18,644 nt of DNA from a virus (IMGVR_UViG_2627853678_000002:1-18644), one strand, 5' to 3'; positions 3 to 18,644 are shown, counted from the first letter of the stretch. Notes: generated from the sequence alone by a model not told the origin. Translations and numbers: made by a program.

Positions 3-320
3 ATGTTATTCAGCGATCTGTTCAAATGTTATTACCCGATCTCGAGGAAGTTATTGAGTGATCTCCATTTCATGAAAATACGCACCAGTGACAGCTTTCA
101 GTTTATTCTCCACGAGAAAAAGAGAGCGGAAAGCGGTAAAAACGCCGGTCAGGAGTGGCTGGCGGTGGTTGGTTATTACCCGAAATTAAGCCAGCTCGTT
201 TCCGGCCTGATGCATCACGATATTCTGACCGGAAGCGCAAAGTCTTTTGCTGATTTAAACGCGCAGGTTGAGCAACTCAGCAAGCGTTGTTCAGAGGCTT
301 TTGGCTCATATGGCCGTTAA
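3..320 (+). CDS. hypothetical protein upstream of the replication gene (position of P2 orf80-83); true start uncertain
   Basis: 105-codon ORF ending 11 nt into gene A; no motif recognised; product not identified. Confidence 0.3.
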   Translation: MLFSDLFKCYYPISRKLLSDLHFMKIRTSDSFQFILHEKKRAESGKNAGQEWLAVVGYYPKLSQLVSGLMHHDILTGSAKSFADLNAQVEQLSKRCSEAFGSYGR

Positions 321-2580: not shown

Positions 2581-2635
2581 GATTGTGATAAAAAGTAAAT
2601 AATTAATATAATGCAATTGCTTGACTGTTTTAAAA

Positions 2636-2666
2636 GGGACAACGTAGTTGTGAACTATATTGTCCC
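2636..2666. terminator. possible bidirectional hairpin between the convergent 3' ends of gene A and the 351-aa gene
   Basis: Inverted repeat GGGACAA (2636-2642) / TTGTCCC (2660-2666) in AT-rich DNA; on the minus strand it is followed by TTTTAAAA. Stem is short and the loop long, so support is weak. Confidence 0.3.
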
Positions 2667-2673
2667 GGGAGTA

Positions 2674-3729
2674 TTAATTTTTAAATATGGATTGTATGTA
2701 TTCTATAGTGCTATCTTTAGCTCTGATGTCTTTTAAAGTGTTATTTATGAAATCTATTATTCTGTCATTACTTAATAGTGGCGATAACGCATAACATGTT
2801 GTTGTGAATGTCATGACGTCACTAAAGCTTAGTGAAACACCTTTTGTCGCAGCGTTCTCAATCGCAAGAGACTCATCAATATCTAAGTTTGTTGCTCTTG
2901 GCCCTTTAAGGAAGATAACTTTTGAAATCCCGGATGCAGATGCTTTTGAAACGGCGTGATTAACATCTTGATAATTAAATGGTTTGTCTTTCACTTCTAT
3001 AGAAAGGAAAACTATATCATCATGATATACATCTATGTCCAGTATCTCTTTTGAGGAGCTACCGGCCTGATTGACGGGATGTGCTTTTATTATCCATCCT
3101 CTTTGTTCACCTAATAAATGTAACGAAATTGCGGCAGCAATCGCGCATGTTTCTCCATCACAAGGATGAGATATAATATTATAAATAATCTTATGGAAAT
3201 CAAAATTAATTGAGTTCGGCGTTATAACTCTATTGGTTCGCTGTAGGGTAAAATATAATGCAATAACAAGCATTTCATAAGCTAAGGTTTGGGTTGTTGC
3301 TGCATGTAATATATCAATTGAAAGTTGTTGTAAAACCTTATCATTTCCTCTGCGCACAGGGTTATCAGAGGAGTGGAGCATGTAACGAGCTGGTTTATTT
3401 AGAAATGGCTCATTTGATGCGCCTAACTTACCCTCTAAAAATGGGCCTTCTACTTTGCCTACTATTACCGAATGACATAAACTTCTTGCATCATAGGCTC
3501 CGTCTACGGGGGCATTAGCTTGTAAAGCCAGAGGGTTTACTCTAGGGTCTGTTGCTTTTGCAAGTAAACCAGTAATAAGTATATATCTGTATGTAAGGTG
3601 GGTGCCTAAAATTACATTTTGAATGGAGACCCATTGATTATTTGTTTTGTAATCAGTTAATTTTTTTGCATCGTTGATTGCATTTATAATTACATTATAG
3701 GCTTGCTCATGATTTACTAATACTTTCAT
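2674..3729 (-). CDS. uncharacterised 351-aa protein; putative PD-(D/E)xK-type nuclease, candidate restriction/defence effector
   Basis: 351-codon ORF in AT-rich DNA with AAGGA 7-11 nt upstream of the ATG; its start overlaps the 3' end of the upstream HTH gene by 23 nt. Candidate motif ILDIDVYHDD-IVFLSIEVK (D238...E245-x-K247, about nt 2989-3018). No Walker A motif seen. Confidence 0.5.
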   Translation of the reverse strand: MKVLVNHEQAYNVIINAINDAKKLTDYKTNNQWVSIQNVILGTHLTYRYILITGLLAKATDPRVNPLALQANAPVDGAYDARSLCHSVIVGKVEGPFLEGKLGASNEPFLNKPARYMLHSSDNPVRRGNDKVLQQLSIDILHAATTQTLAYEMLVIALYFTLQRTNRVITPNSINFDFHKIIYNIISHPCDGETCAIAAAISLHLLGEQRGWIIKAHPVNQAGSSSKEILDIDVYHDDIVFLSIEVKDKPFNYQDVNHAVSKASASGISKVIFLKGPRATNLDIDESLAIENAATKGVSLSFSDVMTFTTTCYALSPLLSNDRIIDFINNTLKDIRAKDSTIEYIQSIFKN

Positions 3730-4021
3730 AGGTGTCCTTTAGTAAGATATCCATTGGTAGACCTAATCGGCTTGCAACCACCTCTAATAATTCAAATAGT
3801 TCTAAAGCATCTAATCGCCTTTCAAAGCTTTCGATTTTAGATATATCTGATTGTGATAATCCTAGAAAAATGGCCAATTCTGACTGCGAAAGAGAAGCTT
3901 CTTTGCGTAGTTTGGTGAGAAGCTGGACTAGGCACCTGTATCTATGATCATGTATAGTTGGTTGTCGTTTTGCCATGTGGTTTAGAAGGTGATTGATTGT
4001 GTGTCGATCCTTACCTATCAT
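3707..4021 (-). CDS. small helix-turn-helix (XRE-like) transcriptional regulator; candidate controller (C) protein
   Basis: HTH-like segment ASLSQSELAIFLGLSQSDISKIE; sits directly upstream of and overlapping the 351-aa gene and divergent from the methyltransferase. Start ambiguous: ATG at 4021 (104 aa) or ATG at 3976 (89 aa); neither has a clear SD. Confidence 0.7.
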   Translation of the reverse strand: MIGKDRHTINHLLNHMAKRQPTIHDHRYRCLVQLLTKLRKEASLSQSELAIFLGLSQSDISKIESFERRLDALELFELLEVVASRLGLPMDILLKDTYESISKS

Positions 4022-5151
4022 TGGTTTTATTCCAAAATCGAATAATTGGTGCTAAAGAAGTGAACAAAATTTCAGCGGTGAGCTTATTTACTGGGGCAGG
4101 AGGGATGGATGTCGGTTTCTCTAATGCCGGGTTCCGAACAGTTTGGGCCAATGATATAGATAAGGATGCATGTGATACATTTAAGCTTAATCATGAATCA
4201 CCTGTTTTTTGTGGTGATATTGATGAGATGCTAAGTGAATTGTCTGGGCTGAAAAATATAGGTTGTGTTTTTGGTGGGCCTCCATGCCAAGGATTTTCTG
4301 TGGCAGGGAAAATGGACGCTCATGATCCACGTAGTAAGCTGGTTATGTCATTCATGCGGGCGGTGGATATAATTCAACCAGAATGCTTTGTTATGGAGAA
4401 TGTTAAGGCTTTAGCACAGTTGTCCAAATTTGAACCAGTTAGGTGTGAACTGTTTAAGATGGCTGAAAAGTCAGGCTATCGTTCAGCCTTGCTGGTGCTG
4501 AATTCTAAAGATTTTGGCGTTCCTCAGAATAGGGAACGTATGTTTTTTATAGGGTTTCGTTCCGAAAATGATGTGAAACGAGTTGAGGCAGCGATAAAAA
4601 AATACCAATATCTTTCGCCAACAGTTGGTGAGATTATTCGGCCTTTAGGGCGAGCGGGTAATCCAAACAATTCAAGAGTCTGTAATGCAAGGATTACAAA
4701 TGCTGCTAAGCCAGTATTACGGAAGTCACCTTACGCGGGAATGATGTTTAACGGGCAGGGAAGACCAATTAACCCGAATGGGTATGCTTCAACTATAGCT
4801 GCTTCTATGGGGGGGAATAGGACACCAATTATTGATGAAGAACACCTTTATGATGGCTCAACAAGTTATGTTGAGACTTATCATAATCATCTAATGAATG
4901 GTGGTGAGCCAAAAGATATGCACGATGTACCTAGTCGTTTACGTCGACTAACGATAGATGAGGCTCTTTTGATTCAAACATTCCCGAGTAATTATGTCTT
5001 TGTGGGGAAAAATTCGTCAATTTGGCGTCAGATAGGGAATGCTGTGCCTTGTAAATTGGCGCAGGCTGTTGCTGCAGGGGTTTTGGATGTCCTTACTGGT
5101 AAAACTATTAATGTTCAAAAGAGTCAAACAGAGTTGAGTTTGAATTCGTAA
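3997..5151 (+). CDS. DNA (cytosine-5)-methyltransferase
   Basis: Canonical C5-MTase motifs in order: I LFTGAGGMDVGF, IV GGPPCQGFS (Cys codon at 4285-4287), VI FVMENV, VIII QNRERMFFIGF, then a variable region and X RQIGNAVP. The 3997 start is TTG preceded by AGAAGGTGA; an in-frame GTG at 4060 is an alternative. Confidence 0.9.
   Translation: MCVDPYLSLVLFQNRIIGAKEVNKISAVSLFTGAGGMDVGFSNAGFRTVWANDIDKDACDTFKLNHESPVFCGDIDEMLSELSGLKNIGCVFGGPPCQGFSVAGKMDAHDPRSKLVMSFMRAVDIIQPECFVMENVKALAQLSKFEPVRCELFKMAEKSGYRSALLVLNSKDFGVPQNRERMFFIGFRSENDVKRVEAAIKKYQYLSPTVGEIIRPLGRAGNPNNSRVCNARITNAAKPVLRKSPYAGMMFNGQGRPINPNGYASTIAASMGGNRTPIIDEEHLYDGSTSYVETYHNHLMNGGEPKDMHDVPSRLRRLTIDEALLIQTFPSNYVFVGKNSSIWRQIGNAVPCKLAQAVAAGVLDVLTGKTINVQKSQTELSLNS
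4027..4045. promoter_or_regulatory. palindromic operator-like element in the divergent control region
   Basis: Perfect inverted repeat TTATTC-N7-GAATAA, read directly from the sequence, between or overlapping the 5' ends of the HTH gene and the methyltransferase gene. Confidence 0.3.
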
Positions 5152-5307
5152 AACGGATCACATTTTCAAACCGATGGATGCAGAATTTAACATTGCTGCA
5201 TGAGTTTGCATCTTGAAATCATAAGCTGTACTGCTTGGCTTGACCAGAATTGATGTGGGTAAGAAGTGGTTATGCACCCGCATTAAAACCGCCCCATTAA
5301 GCGGGCG

Positions 5308-5326
5308 GGCGAGGCGGGGAAAGCAC
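5308..5326. other. cos: cos site (19-nt cohesive-end sequence of P2-type phages)
   Basis: GGCGAGGCGGGGAAAGCAC matches my recollection of the P2 cohesive end and lies where expected, between the right-end cargo and the 3' end of Q. Confidence 0.6.
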
Positions 5327-5468
5327 TGCGCGCTGGCGGTGGTGCTGATTTTATTTTTTCAGCGTCTGAGCGCGTCGTGAAGGCGTTTACTTGGCCTGCC
5401 AGGGCGTCGGTGTGTCTGCGGGCTGTTTTGCGCGGTGGTGAGCGTGTGAGGGCGTGATGGCAGGTTGT

Positions 5469-5490
5469 AAAAAAGCCGCCCGCAGGCGGC
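5469..5490 (-). terminator. rho-independent terminator downstream of the portal gene
   Basis: On the minus strand, GC-rich hairpin GCCGCC-TGCG-GGCGGC followed by TTTTTT, immediately after the Q stop at 5496. Confidence 0.55.
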
Positions 5491-5495
5491 GATGT

Positions 5496-6529
5496 TCAGT
5501 CGTTGTCAGTGTCCAGTGAGTAGTTTTTAAAGCGGATGACCTCCTGACCGAGCCAGCCGTTTATTTCCCGAATCCTGTCCTGTAACGGGATTAGCTCATT
5601 GCGGACAAAGACCTTTGCCACTTTCTCAATATCGCCCAGTGACCCGACGTTCTCCGGCTTGCCACCCATCAACTGAAAGGGGATGCGGTGTGCGTCCAGC
5701 AGGTCAGCGGCGCTGGCTTTTTTGATATTAAAAAAATCGTCCTTCGTCGCCACTTCACTGAGCGGGATAATTTTAATGCCGTCGGCTTTCCCCTGCGGGG
5801 CATAGAGAAACAGGTTTTTAAAGTTGTTGCGGCCTTTTGACTTCACCATGTTTTCGCGAAGCATTTCGATATCGTTGCGATCCTGCACGGCATCGGTAAC
5901 GTACATGATGTATCCGGCATGTGCGCCGTTTTCGTAATACTTGCGGCGGAACAGCGTGGCCGACTCATTCAGCCAGGCAGAGTTAAGGGCGCTGAGATAT
6001 TCCGGCAGACCGTACAGCTCCTGATTAATATCCGGCTCCAGCAGGTGAAACACGGAGCCGGGCGCGAAAGGTGTCGGCTCGTTAAAGGACGGCACCCACC
6101 AGTAAACATCCTCTTCCACACCACGGCGGGTATATTTTGCCGGTGAGGTTTCCAGCCTGATAACTTTACCGGTGGTGCTGTAACGCTTTTCCAGAAACGC
6201 ATTACCGAACACCAGAAAATCCAGCACAAAGCGGCTGAAATCCTGCTGAGAAAGCCACGGATGCGGGATAAATGTCGAGGCCAGAATATTGCGTTTAACG
6301 TAAATCGGCGAGCTGTGATGCACGGCAGCACGCAGGCTTTTTGCCAGACCGGTAAAGCTGACCGGCGGCTCATACCATCTGCCGTTACTGATGCACTCGA
6401 CGTAATCCAGAATGTCACGGCGGTCGAGTACCGGCACCGGCTCACCAAAGGTGAATGCTCCATTTTCGGGGCGCTGGCGGTCATTGTTTTTGCCACAGGT
6501 TGCGGTGTTTTCCCTTTTTTCTTGCTCAT
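5496..6529 (-). CDS. Q: portal protein gpQ, interrupted by an apparent 1-nt frameshift near 6457-6460
   Basis: Two minus-strand ORFs in different frames (5969..6529 starting MSKKKGKTPQ, and 5496..6437) together span 344 codons, the length of P2 gpQ. The first starts in a TGATG overlap with the terminase stop. Frame switches between ...APKME and AFTFGEPVPVLDRR. Confidence 0.8.
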
Positions 6530-8301
6530 CAGTAAAACTCCAGAATGGTGGATGTCAGCGGGGTGCTGATACCGGCGGTGAGTGGCTCATTTAACAGGGC
6601 GTGCATGGTCGCCCAGGCGAGGTCGGCGTGGCTGGCTTCCTCGCTGCGGCTGGCCTCATAGGTGGCGCTGCGTCCGCTGCTGGTCATGGTCTTGCGGATA
6701 GCCATAAACGAGCTGGTGATGTCGGTGGCGCTGACGTCGTATTCCAGACAGCCACGGCGGATAACGTCTTTTGCCTTGAGCACCATTGCGGTTTTCATTT
6801 CCGGCGTGTAGCGGATGTCGCGCGCGGCAGGATAGAACGAGCGCACGAGCTGGAACACGCCGACACCGAGGCCGGTGGCATCAATACCGATGTATTCGAC
6901 GTTGTATTTTTCGGTGAGTTTGCGGATGGATTCCGCCTGGGTGGCAAAGTCCATGCCTTTCCACTGGTGACGCTCAAGTATTCTGAATTTGCCACCGGCA
7001 ACCACCGGCGGTGCCAGTACCACGCATCCGGCGCTGTCGCCACGGTGTGACGGGTCGTAACCAATCCAGACCGGGCGTGAGCCGAACGGATTGGCGGCAA
7101 ACGGCGCATAGTCTTCCCATTCTTCCAGCGTGTCGACCATGCAGCGTTGCAACTCCTCGAACGGGAACACCGACGCCTTGTCGTCAACAAATTCACACAT
7201 GAACAGGTTTTTAAAATCGTCGGCGCTGTTTTCGCGTTTGAGCTGCTCAATGTCGAACAGCGTGCAGCCGCCTTTCAGGGCGTCCTCAATGGTGACAATC
7301 TGCCGCCACTGGCCGTCCGCACAGAGAAGACCTCCGGCAAGTGCGTTATGACTGACGTCGATTTCCACGCGTTCAGCGGCGCTGGCGCGTCCCCGGTTAA
7401 ACAGTTCACCCGACCAGAACGGGTAGGCGTCGTGCGCCAGCGTGGACGGGGTGGAGAAATAGGTCGAACGCAGGTGACTCTGTGAGGCCATACCTGATGC
7501 CACCTTACGCAGTACCTGAAAATTCGGGATCCAGAAAATCTCATCGACGTACAGGTCGCCGTTATGGCTCTGCGCGGTGTTGGAGTTGGTGCCGAGAAAA
7601 ATCAGTTTTGCGCCGTTATTGCCCAGGACAATCGGGTCACCGGTCAGGTCAACGTCAACCAGACGGGCAAAGGCGATGATGTATTCGCGGAACACATACG
7701 CCTGCGTTTTACTGGCCGACAGAAAAATCTGGTTATGGCCGGTTTTCAGGGCGCGCAGCAGCGCCTCGCGGGAAAAATAAAACGTTGCGCCAATCTGGCG
7801 GGATTTCAGGATATCGCGGATGCGGTGCTCAAGCCCGGCGCGATACCAGTGCAACTGATATTCGAAAGACTGCTCAAAGAAAATCTGCTCCAGCTTTTCG
7901 ATGGCTTCGTCGCTGAAAAAATTCTTTTTCGGTTTGCGGCGCCCGCCTTTGTTGCGGTTAGCGACGTTCGGATTAAGGTCTGCCTCGTTGCCGGTCTGAC
8001 TGTAGCGGTTGACCCGCGCCAGCCGTTCAATCTGGCGTCCCAGCAGGTCAATTTCCTTGAAGTCACCGCCGGTTTTCTGCGGTTTGATGATGAGCTGGGT
8101 CAGCCGCGCTTCCAGACTCATTTCGACACGGCTGATGGGGGCAACGCTGTCCCAGCCGTCGCGCTGTTTCCAGCTCTGCACCGTCGGGCGTTTCATCTGC
8201 AACATGGCGGCAATCTGCGGCACGGAAAACCCCTGCCAGTACAGCAGCGCCGCCTGACGACGCGGGTCGTGTAAAAGAGTGGTGTCTGTGGTGATGGTCA
8301 T
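6529..8301 (-). CDS. P: terminase large (ATPase) subunit gpP
   Basis: 600-codon ORF; ATG at 8301 with GAGG upstream gives 590 aa (MTITTDTTLL...), the size of P2 gpP; it is followed directly by the portal gene as in P2. Confidence 0.9.
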   Translation of the reverse strand: MTITTDTTLLHDPRRQAALLYWQGFSVPQIAAMLQMKRPTVQSWKQRDGWDSVAPISRVEMSLEARLTQLIIKPQKTGGDFKEIDLLGRQIERLARVNRYSQTGNEADLNPNVANRNKGGRRKPKKNFFSDEAIEKLEQIFFEQSFEYQLHWYRAGLEHRIRDILKSRQIGATFYFSREALLRALKTGHNQIFLSASKTQAYVFREYIIAFARLVDVDLTGDPIVLGNNGAKLIFLGTNSNTAQSHNGDLYVDEIFWIPNFQVLRKVASGMASQSHLRSTYFSTPSTLAHDAYPFWSGELFNRGRASAAERVEIDVSHNALAGGLLCADGQWRQIVTIEDALKGGCTLFDIEQLKRENSADDFKNLFMCEFVDDKASVFPFEELQRCMVDTLEEWEDYAPFAANPFGSRPVWIGYDPSHRGDSAGCVVLAPPVVAGGKFRILERHQWKGMDFATQAESIRKLTEKYNVEYIGIDATGLGVGVFQLVRSFYPAARDIRYTPEMKTAMVLKAKDVIRRGCLEYDVSATDITSSFMAIRKTMTSSGRSATYEASRSEEASHADLAWATMHALLNEPLTAGISTPLTSTILEFY

Positions 8302-8474
8302 GAATACCTCGCCGTGATGAATACACGGCAAGGCTACTGAGTCGCGCCCCGCGATTCGCTAAGGTGCTGTTGTGTCAGTGATAAGCCATCCGGGACTGAT
8401 GGCGGAGGATGCGTATCGTCGGGAAACTGATGCCGACATGTGACTCCTCTAATCACTATTCAGGACTCCTGACA
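8302..8474. promoter_or_regulatory. divergent control region between P/Q (minus) and the O-N-M-L operon (plus); presumed late promoters
   Basis: 173-bp non-coding gap between divergent starts; contains dyad GTGA-N9-TCAC at about 8440-8456. No exact TGT-N12-ACA element was found, so promoter positions are not assigned. Confidence 0.3.
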
Positions 8475-9329
8475 ATGGCAAAAAAAGTCTCAAAATTCTT
8501 TCGTATCGGCGTTGAGGGTGACACCTGTGACGGGCGTGTCATCAGTGCGCAGGATATTCAGGAAATGGCCGAAACCTTTGACCCGCGTGTCTATGGTTGC
8601 CGCATTAACCTGGAACATCTGCGCGGCATCCTGCCTGACGGTATTTTTAAACGTTATGGCGATGTGGCAGAACTGAAGGCCGAAAAGATTGACGATGATT
8701 CGGCGCTGAAAGGCAAATGGGCGCTGTTTGCGAAAATCACCCCGACCGATGACCTTATCGCGATGAACAAGGCCGCGCAGAAGGTCTACACCTCAATGGA
8801 AATTCAGCCGAACTTTGCCAACACCGGCAAATGTTATCTGGTGGGGCTGGCCGTCACCGATGACCCGGCAAGCCTCGGTACGGAATACCTGGAATTCTGC
8901 CGCACGGCAAAACACAACCCTCTGAACCGCTTCAAATTAAGCCCTGAAAACCTGATTTCAGTGGCAACGCCCGTTGAGCTGGAATTTGAAGACCTGCCTG
9001 AAACCGTGTTCACCGCCCTGACCGAAAAGGTGAAATCCATTTTTGGCCGCAAACAGGCCAGCGATGACGCCCGTCTGAATGACGTGCATGAAGCGGTGAC
9101 CGCTGTTGCTGAACATGTGCAGGAAAAACTGAGCGCCACTGAGCAGCGCCTCGCTGAGATGGAAACTGCCTTTTCCGCTCTTAAGCAGGAGGTGACTGAC
9201 AGGGCGGATGAAACCAGCCAGGCATTCAGCCGCCTGAAAAACAGTCTCGACAACACCGAAAGTCTGACCCAGCAGCGCCGCAGCAAGGCCACCGGCGGTG
9301 GCGGTGACGCCCTGATGACGAACTGCTGA
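8475..9329 (+). CDS. O: capsid scaffolding protein gpO
   Basis: Translation from MAKKVSKFFRIGVEGDTCDGR is 284 aa and matches the remembered P2 gpO; AGGA lies 9-12 nt upstream of ATG 8475. The ORF-track start at 8409 is judged a spurious upstream extension. Confidence 0.9.
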   Translation: MAKKVSKFFRIGVEGDTCDGRVISAQDIQEMAETFDPRVYGCRINLEHLRGILPDGIFKRYGDVAELKAEKIDDDSALKGKWALFAKITPTDDLIAMNKAAQKVYTSMEIQPNFANTGKCYLVGLAVTDDPASLGTEYLEFCRTAKHNPLNRFKLSPENLISVATPVELEFEDLPETVFTALTEKVKSIFGRKQASDDARLNDVHEAVTAVAEHVQEKLSATEQRLAEMETAFSALKQEVTDRADETSQAFSRLKNSLDNTESLTQQRRSKATGGGGDALMTNC

Positions 9330-9387
9330 CCGGCGTCAGCCAGTCCGGGAAAACCTTCACGATTAACCCTTAATTTCAGGAAAAACT

Positions 9388-10460
9388 ATGCGCCAGGAAA
9401 CCCGCTTTAAATTTAATGCCTACCTGTCCCGTGTTGCCGAACTGAACGGCATCGACGCCGGTGATGTGTCGAAAAAATTCACCGTTGAACCGTCGGTCAC
9501 CCAGACCCTGATGAACACCATGCAGGAGTCCTCTGACTTTCTGACCCGCATCAACATTGTGCCGGTCAGCGAAATGAAAGGGGAAAAAATTGGTATTGGT
9601 GTCACCGGCTCCATCGCCAGCACCACCGACACCGCCGGTGGCACCGAGCGTCAGCCGAAGGACTTCTCGAAGCTGGCGTCCAGTAAGTACGAATGCGACC
9701 AGATTAACTTCGATTTTTATATCCGCTACAAAACGCTGGACCTGTGGGCGCGTTATCAGGATTTCCAGCTCCGTATCCGTAACGCCATTATCAAACGCCA
9801 GTCCCTTGATTTCATCATGGCCGGTTTTAACGGCGTGAAGCGTGCCGAAACCTCTGACCGCAACAGCAATCCGATGTTGCAGGATGTGGCGGTCGGCTGG
9901 CTGCAGAAATACCGCAATGAAGCCCCGGCGCGCGTGATGAGCAAGGTCACTGACGAGGAAGGCCGCACCACCTCTGAGGTTATCCGCGTGGGTAAGGGCG
10001 GTGATTATGCCAGCTTGATGCACTGGTGATGGATGCGACCAACAACCTGATTGAGCCGTGGTATCAGGAAGACCCTGACCTTGTGGTGATTGTGGGGCGT
10101 CAGTTACTGGCGGACAAGTATTTCCCCATCGTTAACAAGGAGCAGGACAACAGCGAAATGCTGGCCGCTGACGTCATCATCAGCCAGAAACGCATCGGTA
10201 ACCTGCCGGCGGTACGCGTCCCGTACTTCCCGGCGGATGCGATGCTCATCACGAAGCTGGAAAACCTGTCCATCTACTACATGGATGACAGTCATCGCCG
10301 CGTGATTGAGGAAAACCCGAAACTTGACCGCGTGGAGAACTACGAGTCAATGAACATTGATTACGTGGTGGAAGACTACGCCGCCGGTTGTCTGGTGGAA
10401 AAAATTAAGGTCGGTGATTTCTCCACACTGGCTAAAGCGACCGCAGAGCCGGGAGCGTAA
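9388..10460 (+). CDS. N: major capsid protein gpN, interrupted by an apparent 1-nt frameshift near 10015-10019
   Basis: ORFs 9388..10029 (MRQETRFKFNAYLSRV...GGDYASL) and 10026..10460 (MDATNNLIEPWYQ...AEPGA) are adjacent frames of one capsid gene; the second frame reads LDALVMDATNN upstream of its listed start. Confidence 0.85.
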
Positions 10461-10463
10461 CCG

Positions 10464-11207
10464 ATGACGAGTCCCGCACAGCGCCACATGATGCGGGTCT
10501 CGGCAGCGATGACCGCGCAGCGGGAAGCCGCCCCGCTGCGACATGCAACTGTCTATGAGCAGATGCTGGTTAAGCTCGCCGCAGACCAGCGCACACTGAA
10601 AGCGATTTATTCAAAAGAGCTGAAGGCCGCGAAAAAACGCGAACTGCTGCCGTTCTGGTTGCCGTGGGTGAACGGCGTGCTGGAGCAGGGCAAAGGTGCA
10701 CAGGATGACATTCTGATGACGGTCATGCTGTGGCGTCTGGATACCGGCGATATTGCCGGTGCGCTGGAGATTGCCCGTTACGCCCTGAAGTACGGCCTGA
10801 CCATGCCGGGTAAACACCGCCGCACCCCGCCGTACATGTTCACCGAGGAGGTGGCGCTCGCGGCCATGCGCGCTCACGCTGCCGGTGAGTCTGTGGATCC
10901 CCGCCTGCTGACGGACACCCTCGAACTGACCGCCACGGCTGACATGCCTGATGAAGTGCGCGCAAAGCTGCACAAAATCACCGGTCTGTTTCTGCGTGAC
11001 GCTGGTGATGCCGCAGGTGCGCTGGCGCACCTGCAACGTGCGACACAGCTCGACTGTCAGGCAGGCGTCAAAAAAGAGATTGAACGACTGGAGCGGGAGC
11101 TGAAACCGAAGCCGGAGCCGCAGCCCAAAGCGGCCACCCGCGCCCCGCGTAAGACCCGGAGCGTGACACCGGCAAAACGTGGACGCCCGAAAAAGAAAGC
11201 CAGTTAA
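10464..11207 (+). CDS. M: terminase small subunit gpM
   Basis: 247-aa ORF in the gpM position and size; basic Lys/Pro-rich C-terminal tail. Confidence 0.85.
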   Translation: MTSPAQRHMMRVSAAMTAQREAAPLRHATVYEQMLVKLAADQRTLKAIYSKELKAAKKRELLPFWLPWVNGVLEQGKGAQDDILMTVMLWRLDTGDIAGALEIARYALKYGLTMPGKHRRTPPYMFTEEVALAAMRAHAAGESVDPRLLTDTLELTATADMPDEVRAKLHKITGLFLRDAGDAAGALAHLQRATQLDCQAGVKKEIERLERELKPKPEPQPKAATRAPRKTRSVTPAKRGRPKKKAS

Positions 11208-11306
11208 CAACCGAATGCGCCCCGCGCCAGGGCGGCACGCCGGTCAGTGAGGGTGAATCACCTGACGCTGTACCGGCGTCCACCGCCCGACTTTTCAGAG
11301 GTAGTC

Positions 11307-11816
11307 ATGATGACGCTGATTATTCCGCGAAAGGAGGCTCCCGTGTCCGGTGAGGGTACGGTGGTCATCCCGCAACCGGCAGGCGACGAGCCGGTGATTA
11401 AAAACACGTTCTTTTTTCCCGATATCGACCCGAAGCGCGTCCGGGAACGTATGCGACTTGAGCAGACCGTCGCCCCCGCCCGTCTGCGTGAGGCCATCAA
11501 GTCAGGCATGGCGGAGACGAATGCGGAGCTGTACGAGTACCGCGAACAGAAAATTGCTGCCGGTTTTACGCGTCTGGCGGACGTTCCGGCGGACGACATC
11601 GACGGTGAAAGTATCAAAGTTTTTTACTACGAGCGCGCCGTGTGTGCGATGGCGACCGCGTCGCTTTATGAGCGTTATCGCGGCGTGGATGCCAGTGCGA
11701 AAGGGGACAAGAAGGCCGACAGCATTGACAGCACCATTGATGAGTTGTGGCGGGATATGCGCTGGGCAGTGGCGCGCATCCAGGACAAGCCGCGCTGCAT
11801 CGTGAGTCAAATCTGA
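11307..11816 (+). CDS. L: head completion/stabilisation protein gpL
   Basis: Start at ATG 11307 (MMTLIIPRKEAP, GAGG upstream) gives 169 aa as in P2 gpL; the stop overlaps the X start. Confidence 0.8.
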   Translation: MMTLIIPRKEAPVSGEGTVVIPQPAGDEPVIKNTFFFPDIDPKRVRERMRLEQTVAPARLREAIKSGMAETNAELYEYREQKIAAGFTRLADVPADDIDGESIKVFYYERAVCAMATASLYERYRGVDASAKGDKKADSIDSTIDELWRDMRWAVARIQDKPRCIVSQI

Positions 11817-12019
11817 TGAAGACCTTTGCGCTACAGGGCGACACGCTCGACGCCATTTGTGTCCGGTATTACGGGCGCACTGAGGGCGTGGTCGAGGCCG
11901 TGCTCGCCGCAAATCCGGGACTGGCTGAACTGGGTGCGGTGCTGCCGCACGGCACCGCCGTCGAACTGCCCGACGTTCAGACCGCGCCCGTGGCTGAAAC
12001 TGTCAATCTGTGGGAGTAA
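11816..12019 (+). CDS. X: tail protein X
   Basis: 67-aa product from ATG 11816 (MKTFALQGDTLDAICVRYYG...), the size and position of P2 gpX. Confidence 0.75.
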   Translation: MKTFALQGDTLDAICVRYYGRTEGVVEAVLAANPGLAELGAVLPHGTAVELPDVQTAPVAETVNLWE

Positions 12020-12022
12020 CGC

Positions 12023-12304
12023 ATGACAGCAGAAGAAAAAAGCGTCCTGTCGCTTTTCATGATTGGGGTGCTGATTGTTGTCGGCAAGGTGCTTGCCGGT
12101 GGTGAATCCATCACCCCGCGTCTGTTTATCGGGCGCATGTTACTCGGTGGTTTTGTCTCGATGGTTGCCGGTGTTGTTCTGGTGCAGTTTCCTGACCTGT
12201 CACTGCCTGCGGTGTGCGGCATCGGCTCCATGCTGGGTATCGCCGGTTATCAGGTGATTGAGATTGCCATTCAGCGCCGCTTTAAGGGCAGGGGGAAACC
12301 GTAA
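12023..12304 (+). CDS. Y: holin gpY
   Basis: 93-aa protein with hydrophobic transmembrane segments and a charged C-terminus (RRFKGRGKP); first gene of the lysis cassette. Confidence 0.8.
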   Translation: MTAEEKSVLSLFMIGVLIVVGKVLAGGESITPRLFIGRMLLGGFVSMVAGVVLVQFPDLSLPAVCGIGSMLGIAGYQVIEIAIQRRFKGRGKP

Positions 12305-12801
12305 TGCCGGTTATTAACACGCATCAGAATATCGCCGCCTTTCTCGACATGCTGGCCGTGTCCGAAGGGACGGCAAACCATCCGCTGACGAAAAACCGGG
12401 GCTATGACGTGATAGTCACCGGACTGGACGGGAAGCCGGAAATTTTCACCGACTACAGTGACCACCCGTTCGCACATGGCCGACCGGCGAAGGTGTTTAA
12501 CCGTCGCGGTGAAAAATCCACGGCCTCCGGTCGCTATCAGCAGCTTTACCTGTTCTGGCCGCATTACCGCAAACAGCTTGCCCTGCCGGATTTCAGTCCG
12601 TTGTCACAGGACAGACTTGCCATTCAGTTGATCCGCGAACGCGGTGCACTGGATGACATCCGGGCGGGACGCATTGAGCGCGCCATTTCACGCTGTCGCA
12701 ATATCTGGGCGTCCCTGCCGGGTGCCGGTTACGGTCAGCGTGAGCATTCACTGGAAAAACTGGTCACCGTCTGGCGTACCGCTGGCGGCGTACCGGCTTA
12801 A
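12304..12801 (+). CDS. K: endolysin gpK
   Basis: 165-aa ORF starting in a TAATG overlap with the Y stop; position and length match P2 gpK. Confidence 0.85.
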   Translation: MPVINTHQNIAAFLDMLAVSEGTANHPLTKNRGYDVIVTGLDGKPEIFTDYSDHPFAHGRPAKVFNRRGEKSTASGRYQQLYLFWPHYRKQLALPDFSPLSQDRLAIQLIRERGALDDIRAGRIERAISRCRNIWASLPGAGYGQREHSLEKLVTVWRTAGGVPA

Positions 12802-12815
12802 ACGGAGTAAACACC

Positions 12816-13241
12816 ATGAAGAAATTATCCCTTTCACTGATGCTGAACGTGTCGCTGGCGCTGATGCTGGCACTGTCCCTGATTTACCCGCAGAGCGTGG
12901 CCGTCAGTTTTGTCGCTGTCTGGGCGATTCTGGCGACGGTTATCTGTGTGGTTGCCGGTGGTGTCGGCGTGTATGCCACAGAGTATGTACTGGAACGCTA
13001 CGGGCGGGAGCTGCCGCCGGAATCGCTGGCCGTGAAGATTGTCGCATCGCTGTTTTTGCAGCCGGTGCCGTGGCGCAGACGGGCAGTGGCTCTGGTGGTG
13101 ATGGTGACGACGTTTATCTCGCTGGTCGCTGCCGGGTGGATTTTTACCGCGCTGATTTATCTCGTGGCGTCGCTGTTCTTCCGGCTGATACGTACGGCCT
13201 GCCGTCAGCGTTTTGAGGGGCGGGAACCATGTCAAAGCTGA
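12816..13241 (+). CDS. lysA: lysis accessory membrane protein LysA
   Basis: 141-aa strongly hydrophobic protein following K, as in P2. Confidence 0.7.
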   Translation: MKKLSLSLMLNVSLALMLALSLIYPQSVAVSFVAVWAILATVICVVAGGVGVYATEYVLERYGRELPPESLAVKIVASLFLQPVPWRRRAVALVVMVTTFISLVAAGWIFTALIYLVASLFFRLIRTACRQRFEGREPCQS

Positions 13242-13654
13242 TGACTGTGCTGGTCGTGTTGTTATCGCTGGCGGTGGCGGGGCTGTTTCTGGCGAAGCAT
13301 GAAAACGCCAGCCTGCGCGCCTCGCTGGACAGGGCGAACAACGTCGCCAGTGAACAGCAGACGACCATCACCATGCTGAAAAACCAGCTTCATGTTGCAC
13401 TCACCAGGGCAGATAAAAACGAGCTGGCGCAGGTGGCACTGCGTCAGGAACTGGAAAACGCCGCGAAGCGTGAAGCACAGCGCGAGAAAACCATCACGAG
13501 GTTACTTAATGAAAACGAAGATTTTCGCCGCTGGTACGGTGCTGACCTGCCTGATGCTGTGCGCCGGTTGCACCAGCGCCCGGCCTGCGCCGACGCCAGT
13601 GATTGTCCACAACGCCTGCCCGAAAGTGAGTCTTTGCCCGATGCCGGGCAGTGA
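13229..13654 (+). CDS. lysB: LysB, Rz-like inner-membrane spanin
   Basis: 141 aa with an N-terminal transmembrane segment and a coiled-coil-like periplasmic region. Confidence 0.75.
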   Translation: MSKLMTVLVVLLSLAVAGLFLAKHENASLRASLDRANNVASEQQTTITMLKNQLHVALTRADKNELAQVALRQELENAAKREAQREKTITRLLNENEDFRRWYGADLPDAVRRLHQRPACADASDCPQRLPESESLPDAGQ

Positions 13655-13799
13655 CCCGGAGACGAACGGCGATTTAAGTGCCGATATCCGGCAGCTTGAG
13701 AACGCGCTGGCACGCTGTGCCAGCCAGGTAAAAATGATTAAACACTGTCAGGATGAAAACTATGCTCAAACCCGACAGCCTGCGCAGGGCGCTGACTGA
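13509..13799 (+). CDS. lysC: LysC, Rz1-like outer-membrane lipoprotein spanin, nested in the +1 frame of lysB
   Basis: 96-aa product from ATG 13509 with signal peptide and lipobox LMLCAGC; embedded in and extending past lysB. Confidence 0.7.
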   Translation: MKTKIFAAGTVLTCLMLCAGCTSARPAPTPVIVHNACPKVSLCPMPGSDPETNGDLSADIRQLENALARCASQVKMIKHCQDENYAQTRQPAQGAD

Positions 13800-14229
13800 T
13801 GCCGTCACGGTGCTGAAAACCAGTCCCGAGATGCTGCGGATATTCGTGGATAACGGGAGTATTGCCTCCACACTGGCGACGTCGTTGTCATTCGAAAAGC
13901 GTTACACGCTCAATGTCATTGTGACCGACTTTACCGGTGATTTTGACCTGCTCATTGTGCCGGTGCTGGCGTGGCTGCGGGAAAATCAGCCCGACATCAT
14001 GACCACCGACGCAGGCCAGAAAAAGGGCTTCACATTTTATGCAGACATCAACAATGACAGCAGCTTTGATATCAGTATCAGCCTGATGCTGACCGAGCGC
14101 ACGCTGGTCAGTGAGGTGGACGGCGCGCTGCATGTGAAGAATATCCCGGAACCTCCGCCGCCGGAGCCGGTCACCCGCCCGATGGAGCTGTATATCAATG
14201 GCGAACTGGTGAGCAAGTGGGATGAATGA
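13762..14229 (+). CDS. R: tail completion protein gpR
   Basis: 155 aa from ATG 13762 (MLKPDSLRRALTDAV...); an in-frame ATG at 13753 is an alternative start. Confidence 0.8.
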   Translation: MLKPDSLRRALTDAVTVLKTSPEMLRIFVDNGSIASTLATSLSFEKRYTLNVIVTDFTGDFDLLIVPVLAWLRENQPDIMTTDAGQKKGFTFYADINNDSSFDISISLMLTERTLVSEVDGALHVKNIPEPPPPEPVTRPMELYINGELVSKWDE

Positions 14230-14680
14230 GTTTAAGCGTTTTGAAGACCGGCTGACCGGACTGATTGAATCGCTGTCACCGTCAGGGCGTCGGCGACTGG
14301 CGGTAGATATTGCGAAGAAGCTGCGCCAGCGCCAGCAGCAGCGAATTAAATTACAAAAAGCCCCGGATGGTACGCCGTATGTACCGAGAAAAAACCAACC
14401 AGTACGAAATAAGAAAGGCCGGATAAAGCGGGAAATGTTTGTGAAATTACGCACTAACCGGTTTATGAAAGCAACAGGTAGCGAGAGTGCGGCGGTGGTG
14501 GCGTTTGCCAGCGGAGTACAACGAATTGCGCGAGTACATCAATTAGGGCTTAGGGATAAGCCGGGGCGTAATAGTGCTGTGGTGGAATATCCTGTTCGCG
14601 AGTTATTTGGTTTTGACAAGGAATCTATACAATTGATAGAAAGGGAGTTATTAGTGATTCTATCGAAAGATGTTATATGA
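14222..14680 (+). CDS. S: tail completion protein gpS (3' third is more AT-rich, possibly mosaic)
   Basis: 152 aa beginning MNEFKRFEDRLTGLIESLSP in the gpS position; its stop overlaps the next start in ATGA. Confidence 0.8.
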   Translation: MNEFKRFEDRLTGLIESLSPSGRRRLAVDIAKKLRQRQQQRIKLQKAPDGTPYVPRKNQPVRNKKGRIKREMFVKLRTNRFMKATGSESAAVVAFASGVQRIARVHQLGLRDKPGRNSAVVEYPVRELFGFDKESIQLIERELLVILSKDVI

Positions 14681-14973
14681 GACGGGTGTTTGTGGATAAA
14701 AAGTTTTCCATTTTGAGAAAAAGAGTAAAGCATTCTCAAAAGAAAGTTATGGATTGTATTATTGCTGACCATAATGCTGATATATGTGTGTTATGCGGGA
14801 GTTCTGACGATATTACTCGTGAGCACATTATTCCTCAGTGGGCCTTTGAGTCAAATGCTGAAAAATCTTTAATTAATAAAAAGAATAATCAGTCAACTCA
14901 TTACATTAAAGCCACTGTACCAGCATGCAGAGTGTGCAATTCTGATTTGCTGGGAGTGTTTGAGTATACCTGA
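14677..14973 (+). CDS. small HNH-endonuclease-like protein (cargo in the S-V variable locus)
   Basis: 98-aa ORF in AT-rich DNA with an HNH/His-Me-finger-like pattern: CVLC ... REHIIPQW ... NKKNN ... H ... CRVCN. Confidence 0.6.
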   Translation: MRRVFVDKKFSILRKRVKHSQKKVMDCIIADHNADICVLCGSSDDITREHIIPQWAFESNAEKSLINKKNNQSTHYIKATVPACRVCNSDLLGVFEYT

Positions 14974-15041
14974 AGAAATTTCTTACGGAAAAGAGGGGAG
15001 AGGAGTTAACAGATTATGAGTATGATTGCATCATATGGTGG

Positions 15042-15431
15042 TTGCAATACATGGGTTTTAAGTTGCAATTAATGGATTTGCGGAACCGCTTTCTCAGGTA
15101 TAAAGGTGGTGATTATATCCCGTTCCTTGCAAACTTTCCGGTTGCAATGTTTTGGGGGAATGTCGATACGACGCCGGGGGATGTCTTCAGGATTATACGA
15201 AAATCGCGACGCAATCTGATGTCGAAATGGAAGGATAAAAAACATAATTCTTTGATGGTTTTTGAAACATCAAACAAGAGTTTTCATTTCTTTCATAAGG
15301 TTGATGAATTTATTTTTATTGAAATGCCTCAGGTTAAGAAGGCGTTTTTCTTCTTTTTTAATAAAGAATTTGACAGCCATGATTTAGCTCATGAGGAGTG
15401 TATGAAGATTATAGAGAAGTGCTACAACTAA
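15042..15431 (+). CDS. hypothetical protein (cargo in the S-V variable locus)
   Basis: 129-codon ORF in AT-rich DNA, where an open frame of this length is unlikely by chance; the listed start is TTG and ATG at 15051 (GGTGG upstream) is more likely. No motif recognised. Confidence 0.5.
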   Translation: MQYMGFKLQLMDLRNRFLRYKGGDYIPFLANFPVAMFWGNVDTTPGDVFRIIRKSRRNLMSKWKDKKHNSLMVFETSNKSFHFFHKVDEFIFIEMPQVKKAFFFFFNKEFDSHDLAHEECMKIIEKCYN

Positions 15432-15508
15432 TATTTATTATGTTGTATCACAGCTGACAGAATCCTCCATGATTGCTGCTGGTATCGTCCAGCGGCATCC
15501 TTCCCGTT

Positions 15509-16143
15509 ATGAACACTCTCGCAAATATTCAGGAACTCGCGCGCGCACTGCGCAATATGATTCGCACCGGCATTATCGTCGAAACCGACCTTAACGCCGG
15601 TCGCTGCCGTGTGCAGACCGGCGGCATGTGCACCGACTGGTTGCAGTGGCTGACTCATCGTGCTGGGCGTTCGCGCACATGGTGGGCACCTTCCGTGGGG
15701 GAACAGGTGCTGATTCTGTCCGTGGGCGGCGAACTCGACACGGCGTTTGTTCTGCCGGGGATTTATTCCGGCGATAACCCTGCGCCGTCTGCGTCGGCGG
15801 ATGCCCTGCATATCCGTTTCCCTGACGGGGCGGTGATTGAGTATGAACCCGAAACCAGTGCACTCACGGTAAGCGGAATTAAAACGGCCAGCGTGACGGC
15901 TTCTGATTCTGTTACTGCCACGGTGCCGGTGGTCATGGTGAAAGCATCAACCGCGTCACTCTGGACACGCCGGAGGTGGTCTGCACAAACAGGCTGATCA
16001 CCGGCACGCTGGAAGTGCAGAAGGGCGGGACGATGCGCGGCAACATTGAACACACCGGCGGTGAACTCTCATCAAACGGGAAGGTACTGCATACCCATAA
16101 ACACCCCGGCGACAGCGGCGGCACAACCGGGAGTCCTCTATGA
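15509..16143 (+). CDS. V: baseplate assembly/spike protein gpV, interrupted by an apparent 1-nt frameshift near 15951-15953
   Basis: Translation from ATG 15509 (MNTLANIQELARALRNMIRTG...) matches the remembered P2 gpV; the frame terminates at 15997, while the adjacent frame continues RVTLDTPEVVCTNRLITGTLEVQKGG...GSPL to a stop overlapping the W start. Confidence 0.8.
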
Positions 16144-16487
16144 CAGCGCGTTATCTCGGAATGAATCGCAGTGATGGCCTGACTGTCTCTGACCTTGAGC
16201 ATATCAGCCAGAGTATCGGCGATATCCTGCGCACGCCGGTCGGCTCACGGGTGATGCGTCGTGATTACGGCTCGTTGCTGGCGTCAATGATTGACCAACC
16301 GCAGACCCCGGCGCTTGAGTTGCAGATTAAGGTCGCCTGTTACATGGCGGTGCTGAAATGGGAACCCCGCGTCACCCTGTCATCCGTCACTACGGCGCGC
16401 AGTTTTGACGGGCGAATGACGGTCACGTTAACCGGCCAGCACAACGACACCGGCCAGCCACTTTCGTTAACCATCCCTGTGAGTTGA
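16140..16487 (+). CDS. W: baseplate wedge protein gpW
   Basis: 115-aa ORF in the gpW position and size. Confidence 0.85.
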   Translation: MTARYLGMNRSDGLTVSDLEHISQSIGDILRTPVGSRVMRRDYGSLLASMIDQPQTPALELQIKVACYMAVLKWEPRVTLSSVTTARSFDGRMTVTLTGQHNDTGQPLSLTIPVS

Positions 16488-16491
16488 AACC

Positions 16492-17400
16492 ATGCCGATT
16501 ATCGACCTGAACCAGCTACCCGCACCGGATGTGGTCGAGGAGCTGGACTTTGAAACCATTCTCGCTGAACGCAAGGCGACACTGATTTCCCTTTACCCGG
16601 AAGACCAGCAGGAGGCGGTCGCCCGTACCCTGACGCTGGAATCCGAGCCTCTCGTCAAACTGCTGGAGGAAAATGCTTATCGTGAGCTTATCTGGCGTCA
16701 GCGTGTGAATGAGGCCGCACGGGCGGTGATGCTGGCCTGTGCCGCCGGTAATGACCTTGATGTTATTGGTGCCAATTACAACACCACGCGCCTGATTATC
16801 ACCCCGGCAGATGATTCGACCATCCCGCCGACACCGGCAGTAATGGAATCTGACACGGATTATCGTCTGCGTATTCAGCAGGCGTTTGAAGGTTTAAGCG
16901 TCGCCGGGTCGGTGGGTGCCTATCAGTATCATGGCCGCAGTGCTGACGGGCGTGTCGCGGATATCTCTGTCACCAGTCCGTCTCCGGCCTGTGTCACCAT
17001 CTCTGTGCTGTCACGTGAAAATAACGGTGTCGCTTCCGAAGACTTGCTGGCGGTGGTGCGTAACGCCCTTAATGGCGAGGACGTCAGGCCGGTGGCCGAC
17101 CGCGTGACCGTGCAGTCTGCCGCCATTGTTGAATATCAGATAAACGCCACGCTTTACCTTTACCCTGGTCCCGAAAGCGAACCCATCCGCGCTGCTGCCG
17201 TGAAAAAACTGGAAGCGTATATCACGGCACAGCACCGGCTGGGGCGCGACATCCGTCTGTCTGCCATTTATGCCGCTTTGCATGTGGAGGGCGTGCAGCG
17301 TGTCGAGCTGGCCGCACCACTGGCCGACATCGTGCTCAACAGTACGCAGGCGTCTTTCTGTACCGAATACCGCGTCGTGACCGGAGGCTCGGATGAGTGA
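16492..17400 (+). CDS. J: baseplate protein gpJ
   Basis: 302-aa ORF in the gpJ position and size. Confidence 0.85.
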   Translation: MPIIDLNQLPAPDVVEELDFETILAERKATLISLYPEDQQEAVARTLTLESEPLVKLLEENAYRELIWRQRVNEAARAVMLACAAGNDLDVIGANYNTTRLIITPADDSTIPPTPAVMESDTDYRLRIQQAFEGLSVAGSVGAYQYHGRSADGRVADISVTSPSPACVTISVLSRENNGVASEDLLAVVRNALNGEDVRPVADRVTVQSAAIVEYQINATLYLYPGPESEPIRAAAVKKLEAYITAQHRLGRDIRLSAIYAALHVEGVQRVELAAPLADIVLNSTQASFCTEYRVVTGGSDE

Positions 17401-18004
17401 TTCGCGCCTGCTGCCGACCGGCTCATCACCGCTTGAAATTGCTGCCGCGAAAGCCTGTGCGGAAATTGAAAAAACGCCGGTCAGTATTCGTGAGCTGTGG
17501 AACCCGGACACCTGCCCGGCAAATCTGCTGCCGTGGCTGGCGTGGGCCTTTTCGGTCGACAGGTGGGATGAAAAGTGGCCGGAAGCGACAAAACGCGCCG
17601 TTATCCGCGATGCCTATTTCATCCACTGTCATAAGGGTACTGTCGGCGCAATCCGGCGTGTTGTGGAGCCGCTCGGCTATCTGATTGAAGTGAGGGAGTG
17701 GTGGCAGCTCAACGAGGAGCCGGGGACGTTCCGTATCGTTGTTGGCGTGCTTGAGCAGGGTATTACCGAAGAAATGTATCTGGAGCTGGAACGTCTCGTT
17801 GCTGATGCAAAACCGGCGAGCCGCCATCTGACGGGACTGGCTATCAGTTTAAGTACAACCGGCAACATTTTTGCCGGAACGGGATGCTATCACGGTGACG
17901 CCCTGATGGTTTATCCCTACACCCCGGAGGCCATTATTGTCGGAGGGGATTATTTCCCGGCCTCGGTCATTCATTTAATTGATAACCTGAGAGTAAACGC
18001 ATGA
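17393..18004 (+). CDS. I: baseplate/tail protein gpI
   Basis: 203-aa ORF whose N-terminal part (MSDSRLLPTGSSPLE...) matches the remembered P2 gpI; the C-terminus is longer and different. Confidence 0.8.
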   Translation: MSDSRLLPTGSSPLEIAAAKACAEIEKTPVSIRELWNPDTCPANLLPWLAWAFSVDRWDEKWPEATKRAVIRDAYFIHCHKGTVGAIRRVVEPLGYLIEVREWWQLNEEPGTFRIVVGVLEQGITEEMYLELERLVADAKPASRHLTGLAISLSTTGNIFAGTGCYHGDALMVYPYTPEAIIVGGDYFPASVIHLIDNLRVNA

Positions 18005-18644
18005 CAGTGAAATACTACGCCATTCTGACTAATCAGGGCGCAGCACGACTGGCTAACGCGACGATGCTCGGCAGTAAGCTGAATCTGACGCAAATGGCCG
18101 TTGGTGATGCGAATGGTGTATTACCGACACCAGACCCGGCACAGACAAAACTGATTAACCAGAAACGCATTGCACCGCTGAATCTTCTGAGTGTTGACCC
18201 TAACAATCAGAGCCAGATTATTGCGGAGCAAATTATCCCTGAAAACGAGGGAGGATTCTGGATCCGTGAGATTGGGCTTTATGATGATGAAGGCGTACTC
18301 ATTGCGGTGGCGAACTGCCCGGAAACGTACAAACCGCAGTTGCAGGAAGGCAGTGGTCGTACCCAGACTATCCGCATGATTCTGGTTGTCTCGAATACCG
18401 AAGCCATCACGCTGAAAATCGACCCGTCGGTGGTACTGGCGACCCGTAAATATGTGGATGACAAAATCTCAGAACACGAACAGTCACGACGACACCCGGA
18501 TGCATCGCTGACCGCAAAAGGTTTTACTCAGTTAAGCAGCGCAACCAACAGCACGTCTGAAACACTGGCCGCAACGCTGAGAGCGGTAAAGGTCGCGTAT
18601 GATCTTGCTAACGGGAAATATACTGCACAGGACGCGACCACAGC
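18001..18644 (+). CDS. H: tail fibre protein gpH, N-terminal part (runs off the window end)
   Basis: Open frame from ATG 18001 (ATGA overlap with the I stop) to the window end, translated by hand: MTVKYYAILTNQGAARLANAT...EHEQSRRHPDASLTAKGFTQLSSATNSTSETLAAT, tail-fibre-like. Not in the ORF track because it has no stop. Confidence 0.8.
   Translation, partial: MTVKYYAILTNQGAARLANATMLGSKLNLTQMAVGDANGVLPTPDPAQTKLINQKRIAPLNLLSVDPNNQSQIIAEQIIPENEGGFWIREIGLYDDEGVLIAVANCPETYKPQLQEGSGRTQTIRMILVVSNTEAITLKIDPSVVLATRKYVDDKISEHEQSRRHPDASLTAKGFTQLSSATNSTSETLAATLRAVKVAYDLANGKYTAQDATT

Follow-up and report, generated by a model that had tools for sequence, protein, structure and literature searches.

Classical P2 carries between tail completion gene S and baseplate gene V a 261-bp orf30 of AT-rich foreign DNA, and the genome paper of phage R18C reports a 741-bp hypothetical moron ORF in its place (PMC6823313). 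The defence hotspots of P2 are old/tin and Z/fun (Rousset 2022, PMC9122126). The S–V slot is not among these two main hotspots in the literature, a point against defence. Across the literature searched (P2 hotspot papers, DefensePredictor and iLund4u), the R18C genome note was the only description of the HNH protein analysed here.

The window, i.e., the whole stretch of 18,644 nucleotides of viral DNA that was analysed, is draft contig JXRF01000142.1 of assembly GCA_000832005.1. Between S (14222..14680, + strand) and V (15509..16143, + strand) it has two co-directional ORFs on the + strand. ORF1 (14677-14973) starts with ATG and encodes 98 aa, and ORF2 (15042-15431) starts with TTG and encodes 129 aa. 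A first-pass annotation, made from this sequence, correctly located both ORFs and took them for a cassette of two genes, a nuclease plus a partner. We conclude that the S–V region almost certainly holds a single gene split by a 1-nt deletion. The best overall explanation is probably one accessory HNH nuclease gene, artefactually split and acting in conflict between genetic elements.

Reading frame of the S–V gene

Alignment of the window to E. coli MS 124-1 over 14500-15600 (1101 bases) revealed one difference, the absence of a single A at 14967. At this frameshift site (14965..14969, + strand) all relatives have TATAACC, and the window has TATACC. The contraction from AA to A creates the ORF1 stop codon at 14971-14973. 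In a three-frame translation, the ORF2 frame is already open at 14964, 8 nt ahead of that stop. When the A is restored after 14967 (from TATACC to TATAACC), ORF1 and ORF2 become one ORF of 246 or 251 aa, identical to the sole annotated CDS of MS 124-1 at the locus. Because the restored A gives one continuous ORF, the TTG start of ORF2 is spurious. The gene occupies 14692..15431 (+ strand), is 741 nt long (246 aa) when intact, and has the C-terminal half of its protein encoded at 14964..15428 (+ strand).

The two product lengths reflect two possible starts. The overlap of ATG 14677 with the S stop in the letters ATGA, described at first pass, is present in the sequence, and translation from this upstream ATG would give the 251-aa product. 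In the family alignment, however, the conserved start corresponds to the GTG at 14692 (ATG in most relatives).

The unbroken form is the usual one. MS 124-1, YZ22MPE54 and phage R18C each have one annotated CDS of 741 nt between S and V (“hypothetical protein,” 246 aa). The R18C gene, ORF16/gp15 (YP_009883387.1, equivalent to E. coli WP_235639334.1), is the same gene in the same place, with 99.2% protein identity; it is a single ORF, whereas the window copy lacks one A and reads as two. A megablast search with 14500-15600 as the query found 77 full-length matches among complete E. coli genomes, and in every one of the best 30 the span in the matched record is one base longer than the aligned query stretch. 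The 741-nt span is unbroken and forms a single CDS in 55 of the 60 complete E. coli carriers sampled.

More distant homologues have the same architecture. A search of 5.8 billion proteins identified 44 homologue clusters, nearly all of them full length at ~245-251 aa. They derive from Escherichia, Yersinia, Klebsiella, Enterobacter, Kosakonia and Erwinia, and one member, with 41% identity, is from Bacteroidota. The N- and C-terminal halves are conserved jointly down to 26-41% identity, and the predicted catalytic helix and the helices that follow it run across the ORF1/ORF2 break.

The S–V slot and the imported block

The low GC content reported for the S–V segment was borne out by measurement: G+C is 0.36 for 14692-15431 and 0.53 in the remaining window. 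The reading of this segment as an AT-rich foreign accessory insert in the orf30 slot of a P2-like prophage is likewise supported. The HNH gene shares with P2 orf30 both the S–V position and the character of AT-rich foreign DNA, and differs from it in length (741 nt versus 261 bp). Most of the E. coli P2-like phages examined have neither orf30 nor the HNH gene.

The S–V junction is an empty 66-nt stretch in Wphi, pro483, vB_EcoM-720R8 and P2-T22 (a P2 isolate from strain T22). Nucleotide homology of the window to Wphi, P2-T22 and pro483 breaks off within S at 14379 and is regained at 15472, 37 nt ahead of V. Therefore, the imported block comprises the divergent 3′ two-thirds of S together with the nuclease gene. 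This mosaic block (14380..15471, + strand; G+C 0.385) replaces the empty junction. From about codon 53 onward, S is a divergent allele of the 186/Klebsiella type, and its C-terminal part is 40% identical to S of Wphi and 68% identical to S of a Klebsiella prophage (55-68% across Klebsiella and Enterobacter). We considered a specific linkage of the HNH gene to the divergent S allele and rejected it, since alleles of this 186/Klebsiella type are widespread among phages that lack the HNH gene.

Homologues with 55-74% identity occur at the S–V junction in P2-like prophages from Klebsiella, Enterobacter and a soil metagenome, where they begin 12-15 nt downstream of the S stop. The pair of genes proposed at first pass is not found at these loci, where the homologue is always a single gene. 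Within E. coli the gene is rare: 77 of 5426 complete genomes (1.4%) carry it and 1547 match the flanks. Among 50,697 phage records it occurs in one, R18C. The window and R18C copies differ at 6 of 741 nt in the gene, compared with 12 of ~360 nt in the adjacent flanks.

A promoter and terminator scan of 14200-15700 gave counts no different from those of shuffled sequence, with no convincing promoter upstream of the HNH gene. A scan for repeats revealed neither direct nor inverted repeats at the flanks that would mark a transposable unit. Because the gene follows the S stop by 12-15 nt and lacks a recognisable promoter, we infer that it is probably transcribed by read-through from the late O-to-S operon. 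In P2-like phages, the S–V junction represents a third, little-studied variable slot and a possible further reservoir of conflict genes.

Protein domains and family distribution

The putative HNH/zinc-finger catalytic core is encoded at 14785..14940 (+ strand) and comprises C37-x2-C40, E49-H50, N70 and C84-x2-C87-N88 (251-aa numbering). No substitution of the CxxC, EH, N or CxxCN residues occurs among 33 close homologues or among 29 distant ones, down to 26% identity. In the alignment to the HNH endonuclease 4h9d, C37, C40, C84 and C87 coincide with its CxxC pairs; E49-H50, N70 and N88 match the catalytic His after an acidic residue and the Asn ligand positions. At the motif level, the HNH-like Cys/His pattern seen at first pass is an HNH-type motif that is invariant across the family.

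Profile searches detected the domain with varying strength. HNH_5 (PF14279) was the only Pfam signal in the intact protein (18.4 bits, E = 0.002, below the cut-off of 27.5), and the match covers profile positions 1-21 only. A distant relative (P0154) passes the same cut-off with 30.8 bits. Compared with the PDB, the family profile has its best match to 4h9d (E = 0.099), aligned on CxxC...(D/E)H and PACxxCN; no match was found in the PDB with the single protein sequence, or in NCBIfam with the intact protein. The likeness to HNH_5-type endonucleases and to 4h9d thus consists in the arrangement of zinc ligands and catalytic residues, CxxC ... (E/D)H ... N ... CxxCN, and the difference from the HNH_5-type enzymes is that our protein scores below the Pfam cut-off.

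An exhaustive profile search recovered 832 relatives, including ~25 full-length cluster representatives of 240-290 aa. Many of the 832 are 300-360 aa long, and most share just the N-terminal ~100 residues with the query. The 300-360-aa relatives that we scanned are of the HNH_5 type, one of them above the Pfam cut-off.

The C-terminal ~150 residues are also conserved (W122, K129, S192, F227 and others) and are modelled with confidence (pLDDT 87) as helices, a four-stranded sheet and a final helix. The first-pass annotation had described the 129-aa product as a protein with no recognisable motif. This holds insofar as the C-terminal half matched no Pfam family and no solved fold, but the sequence is a conserved domain of the same polypeptide rather than a protein of its own. 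Neither 4h9d nor the other solved structures have a counterpart to the N-terminal helix and the ~150-aa C-terminal domain of the query. The gene encodes an HNH-type catalytic motif that is under purifying selection and is fused to a conserved domain of no known fold. The full-length protein matches PHROG 10503 (function unknown) with E = 7e-178; the gene thus belongs to an already catalogued, uncharacterised family of HNH nuclease type.

The family is widespread outside P2-like phages. With one genome scanned per species, 128 loci were recovered and 80 retained. Only three of these are in P2-like prophages, and the other 77 are in non-P2 chromosomal contexts in many phyla, so that the family is not confined to phage, intron or intein contexts. 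Carriers include Vibrio, Photobacterium, Shewanella, Colwellia, Halomonas, Flavobacterium, Chryseobacterium, Pedobacter, Sphingobacterium, Desulfobulbaceae and Gracilibacteria, among others.

We searched for a partner gene by clustering ORFs of at least 70 aa within 6 kb of the family gene (874 neighbouring ORFs from the 80 loci). No neighbour family occurs in more than 6 of the 80 loci, and the few recurring families are confined to closely related Chryseobacterium genomes. Intergenic gaps next to the family genes are typically ~150 nt on both sides. Given the absence of a recurrent neighbour and the presence of these gaps, we infer that the gene is a stand-alone unit without a partner. Most of the 120 immediate neighbours are housekeeping (metabolic or regulatory) genes. 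A minority are associated with defence or mobility: Mrr_cat (3), type IV restriction endonuclease (2), GajB, LmuA, bSEFIR, PD-Lambda-3_B and relaxase (2). As raw counts, uncorrected for any background rate, these are weakly suggestive of an association with defence islands.

Candidate roles and origin of the deletion

A role in the virion or in morphogenesis was rejected, as P2, Wphi and most relatives are without the HNH gene; its product also showed no match to virion or morphogenesis proteins. The intact protein had no significant match in PADLOC-DB 2.0 (best hit PDC-M01B, E = 0.04), nor did PADLOC match any of ten relatives of ~300-600 aa. The earlier remark that no described defence system could be recognised in the cassette agrees with these searches.

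We propose that the product is a stand-alone protein of ~246 aa whose N-terminal third would form a zinc-finger HNH (beta-beta-alpha-metal) nuclease domain, with a family-specific domain in the remaining two thirds that most plausibly serves target recognition or regulation. Its gene would be an AT-rich accessory (“moron”) gene, held in the S–V/orf30 slot by one lineage of P2-like phages. The protein may cut nucleic acid, and the phage may keep it against competing DNA, such as co-infecting or resident phages, satellites and other mobile elements. It would then be an exclusion- or defence-type nuclease that works as a single polypeptide. On the conservation of its catalytic residues, the intact protein is, on balance, likely to be an active nuclease. 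A role in exclusion or defence is possible, at somewhat less than an even chance. Consistent with a conflict role, some chromosomal homologues adjoin Mrr/type IV restriction, GajB, LmuA, bSEFIR, PD-Lambda-3 or relaxase genes.

Single-protein nuclease defence systems and the exclusion genes of P2 prophages (old, tin, fun/Z) provide a close functional comparison. Like the latter, the HNH gene is a horizontally acquired accessory gene of a P2-like prophage. It also resembles single-protein nuclease defence systems in combining a nuclease domain with an uncharacterised domain, and in having some homologues that adjoin defence genes. It differs from the genes of the old, tin and fun/Z hotspots in its S–V location, in matching no PADLOC model and in lacking its own promoter. 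Were its transcription restricted to that of the late genes, the lysogen would go unprotected.

A more far-reaching version of the proposal is tentative, and we consider it rather unlikely. Here, the intact protein would be the founding member of a new single-polypeptide immunity or exclusion system, in which an HNH nuclease is checked by, or targeted through, a C-terminal domain of new fold. Such a system would be spread over Proteobacteria, Bacteroidota and other phyla, and would have been captured by one P2-like lineage at the end of the late O-to-S operon. In that position its targets during lytic growth would be competing phages or P4-type satellites, and it would not serve to protect the lysogen.

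Phage-encoded freestanding HNH homing endonucleases, e.g., the T4 Mob proteins and I-HmuI, are likewise small HNH proteins, encoded by AT-rich genes that lie between conserved phage genes and show empty-site polymorphism. A homing enzyme at S–V would cut the empty junction, or the P2-type S allele, of co-infecting relatives, and the gene would then be copied by recombinational repair together with flanking sequence. Several features described above could be explained in this way. The gene is present or absent at a single intergenic site between conserved structural genes, the 66-nt empty alleles are intact, and the gene is of low G+C and tightly appended to the late operon. The N-terminal HNH domain is followed by a C-terminal domain that could bind DNA, and the insert comes with a divergent 3′ part of S that resembles a co-conversion tract. 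Occasional decay of the gene, and the higher similarity of the window and R18C copies in the gene (6/741 nt differ) than in the adjacent flanks (12/~360 nt), also point in this direction. However, most family members are chromosomal and outside phages (in Bacteroidota, Vibrionaceae, Desulfobacterota and others), which is unusual for phage homing endonucleases and unlike the Mob and I-HmuI proteins. The C-terminal half has no Pfam match and no DNA-binding module known from homing endonucleases, and the divergent S is of the ordinary 186/Klebsiella type that many phages carry without the gene. Spread is weak (R18C alone among 50,697 phage records, and 1.4% of the complete E. coli genomes), despite the 1547 genomes with matching flanks. 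In addition, intact copies with invariant catalytic residues and 55-74% identity persist in the same slot across genera, which points to selection over the long term and not to a repeated cycle in which the gene invades and decays. From these sequence comparisons we judge homing to be unlikely, and favour the accessory nuclease acting in conflict between elements.

The deletion at 14967 has its own set of explanations. Over 84-18644 (18.56 kb aligned), the window differs from MS 124-1 by two substitutions and four single-base deletions. All four deletions shorten homopolymers: CC to C at 6457, CC to C at 10013, AA to A at 14967 and CCC to CC at 15950. They fall in the portal gene Q, the major capsid gene N, the HNH gene and V, respectively, and V, frameshifted by the contraction at 15950, is missing from the public annotation of the contig (L014). 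Other contigs examined for the C-terminal fragment all lack the 14967 deletion. A sequencing error is likely because the three remaining deletions disrupt the genes for portal, capsid and V. The ratio of four homopolymer indels to two substitutions in an otherwise identical 18.5-kb prophage also argues for base-calling error rather than decay. Thus, the 14967 deletion is most likely a technical (sequencing or assembly) error and not a private mutation.

If the frameshift were real, the HNH gene would be a decaying pseudogene in a defective prophage, the split would be biological and the locus non-functional. The broken portal, capsid and V genes are what would be expected of a dead prophage, and the HNH gene has been disrupted independently in other assemblies: by a Trp-to-stop change (L013), by a 1-nt deletion (L015) and by truncation (P0037-P0039), and 5 of the 60 sampled complete E. 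coli genomes have net indels in it. We nevertheless regard decay of the window copy as improbable, given that four single-base homopolymer contractions against only two substitutions are the signature of base-calling error and that none of the four was found in any other contig examined.

Much less survives of a genuine cassette of nuclease plus partner, whether toxin-antitoxin or abortive infection. The window does contain ORFs of 98 and 129 aa, but in every close relative they are contiguous within one conserved ORF, and ORF2 depends on a TTG inside that conserved coding frame. The catalytic helix and the next helices span the break, three further homopolymer deletions lie in essential genes of the same contig, and no partner gene is conserved among the 80 loci. 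Two separate genes are therefore highly improbable. The toxin-antitoxin or two-component reading is refuted, because the supposed partner is the C-terminal half of the same protein, split off by a 1-nt deletion peculiar to this draft contig. A programmed -1 ribosomal frameshift, which would yield the full-length protein from two frames and would fit the -1 position of the downstream frame relative to ORF1 and the 8-nt frame overlap, was rejected as having a negligible chance, since the site GAGTATACCTGA (GAG-TAT-ACC-TGA) has no slippery heptamer, all relatives are in one frame with no two-frame layout conserved, and three similar deletions occur elsewhere in the contig.

The split has practical consequences. 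Acting on the two-gene reading would have sent experimenters after a toxin or partner system that does not exist, and cloning of 14600-15470 from the JXRF01000142.1 sequence would give a frameshifted, probably dead gene. Experiments call instead for the intact allele of R18C or MS 124-1. What remains usable is a well-conserved and widespread family of HNH-domain proteins with a second domain of no known fold. More generally, a frameshift check on adjacent small ORFs in draft contigs should precede any reading of them as an operon. Shorter gene calls of 126 aa at this locus in other contigs are due to contig ends, to the nonsense codon in L013 and to the different 1-nt deletion in L015.

Frameshifts in the window and disruptions of the HNH gene

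The window differs by four 1-base homopolymer contractions, at positions 6457, 10013, 14967 and 15950, from the prophage of Escherichia coli MS 124-1, the strain with the nearest complete genome; in other respects the two are identical. The contraction at 14967 falls in the HNH-type nuclease gene, and the other three split genes Q (portal; 5496-6529, minus strand), N (major capsid; 9388-10460) and V (baseplate; 15509-16143). Frameshift errors should be reckoned with in any ORF-level reading of the window.

The HNH gene is also independently disrupted in other assemblies. These comprise the loci L013 (ERR2910126) and L015 (SRR33053948), the homologous proteins P0037-P0039, and the E. coli genome matches H101, H108, H109, H119 and H120. 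Among the natural disruptions are a nonsense codon (TGG to TGA) at about residue 116, net indels of +2, -1, +1 and -11 nt, further 1-nt deletions and C-terminal replacements. The HNH gene appears to be dispensable, with occasional decay in lysogens.

Genes accompanying the HNH gene in other genomes

In P2-like prophages of Klebsiella pneumoniae, the HNH gene in the slot between tail genes S and V is followed by a second gene, encoding 216 aa in the opposite orientation (L005 4926-5576, minus strand; present also in loci L006 and L007). The S-V slot is therefore able to accept further cargo, which suggests that it is a genuine variable region. Pfam and PADLOC returned no matches for the 216-aa protein.

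Six loci of Chryseobacterium type (L100, at 126-4340, and five related ones) each encode a protein of ~1400 aa on the upstream side of the HNH-family gene, at a distance of a few kb. Its recurrence may reflect mere close kinship of the Chryseobacterium genomes.

Source strain and restriction-modification module

The contig, JXRF01000142.1, is labelled E. coli O139:H28 str. E24377A, and the best match to the region is strain MS 124-1. The complete E24377A reference genome (NC_009801.1) is in the searched collection and was absent among the 60 near-identical matches listed of 77 in total. Either the draft strain has a prophage missing from the E24377A reference or the label is doubtful; the discrepancy itself is not certain, as 17 of the 77 matches lie outside those listed.

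A type II restriction-modification module occupies 2674-5151, flanked by replication gene A on one side and portal gene Q on the other, a location that corresponds to the classical P2 old/tin hotspot. Its endonuclease gene (2674-3729, minus strand) is of the SacI family, with a match to Pfam RE_SacI at E 2e-76; the other members are a small HTH gene and a gene for a C5 cytosine methyltransferase (3997-5151, plus strand; E 1e-66).
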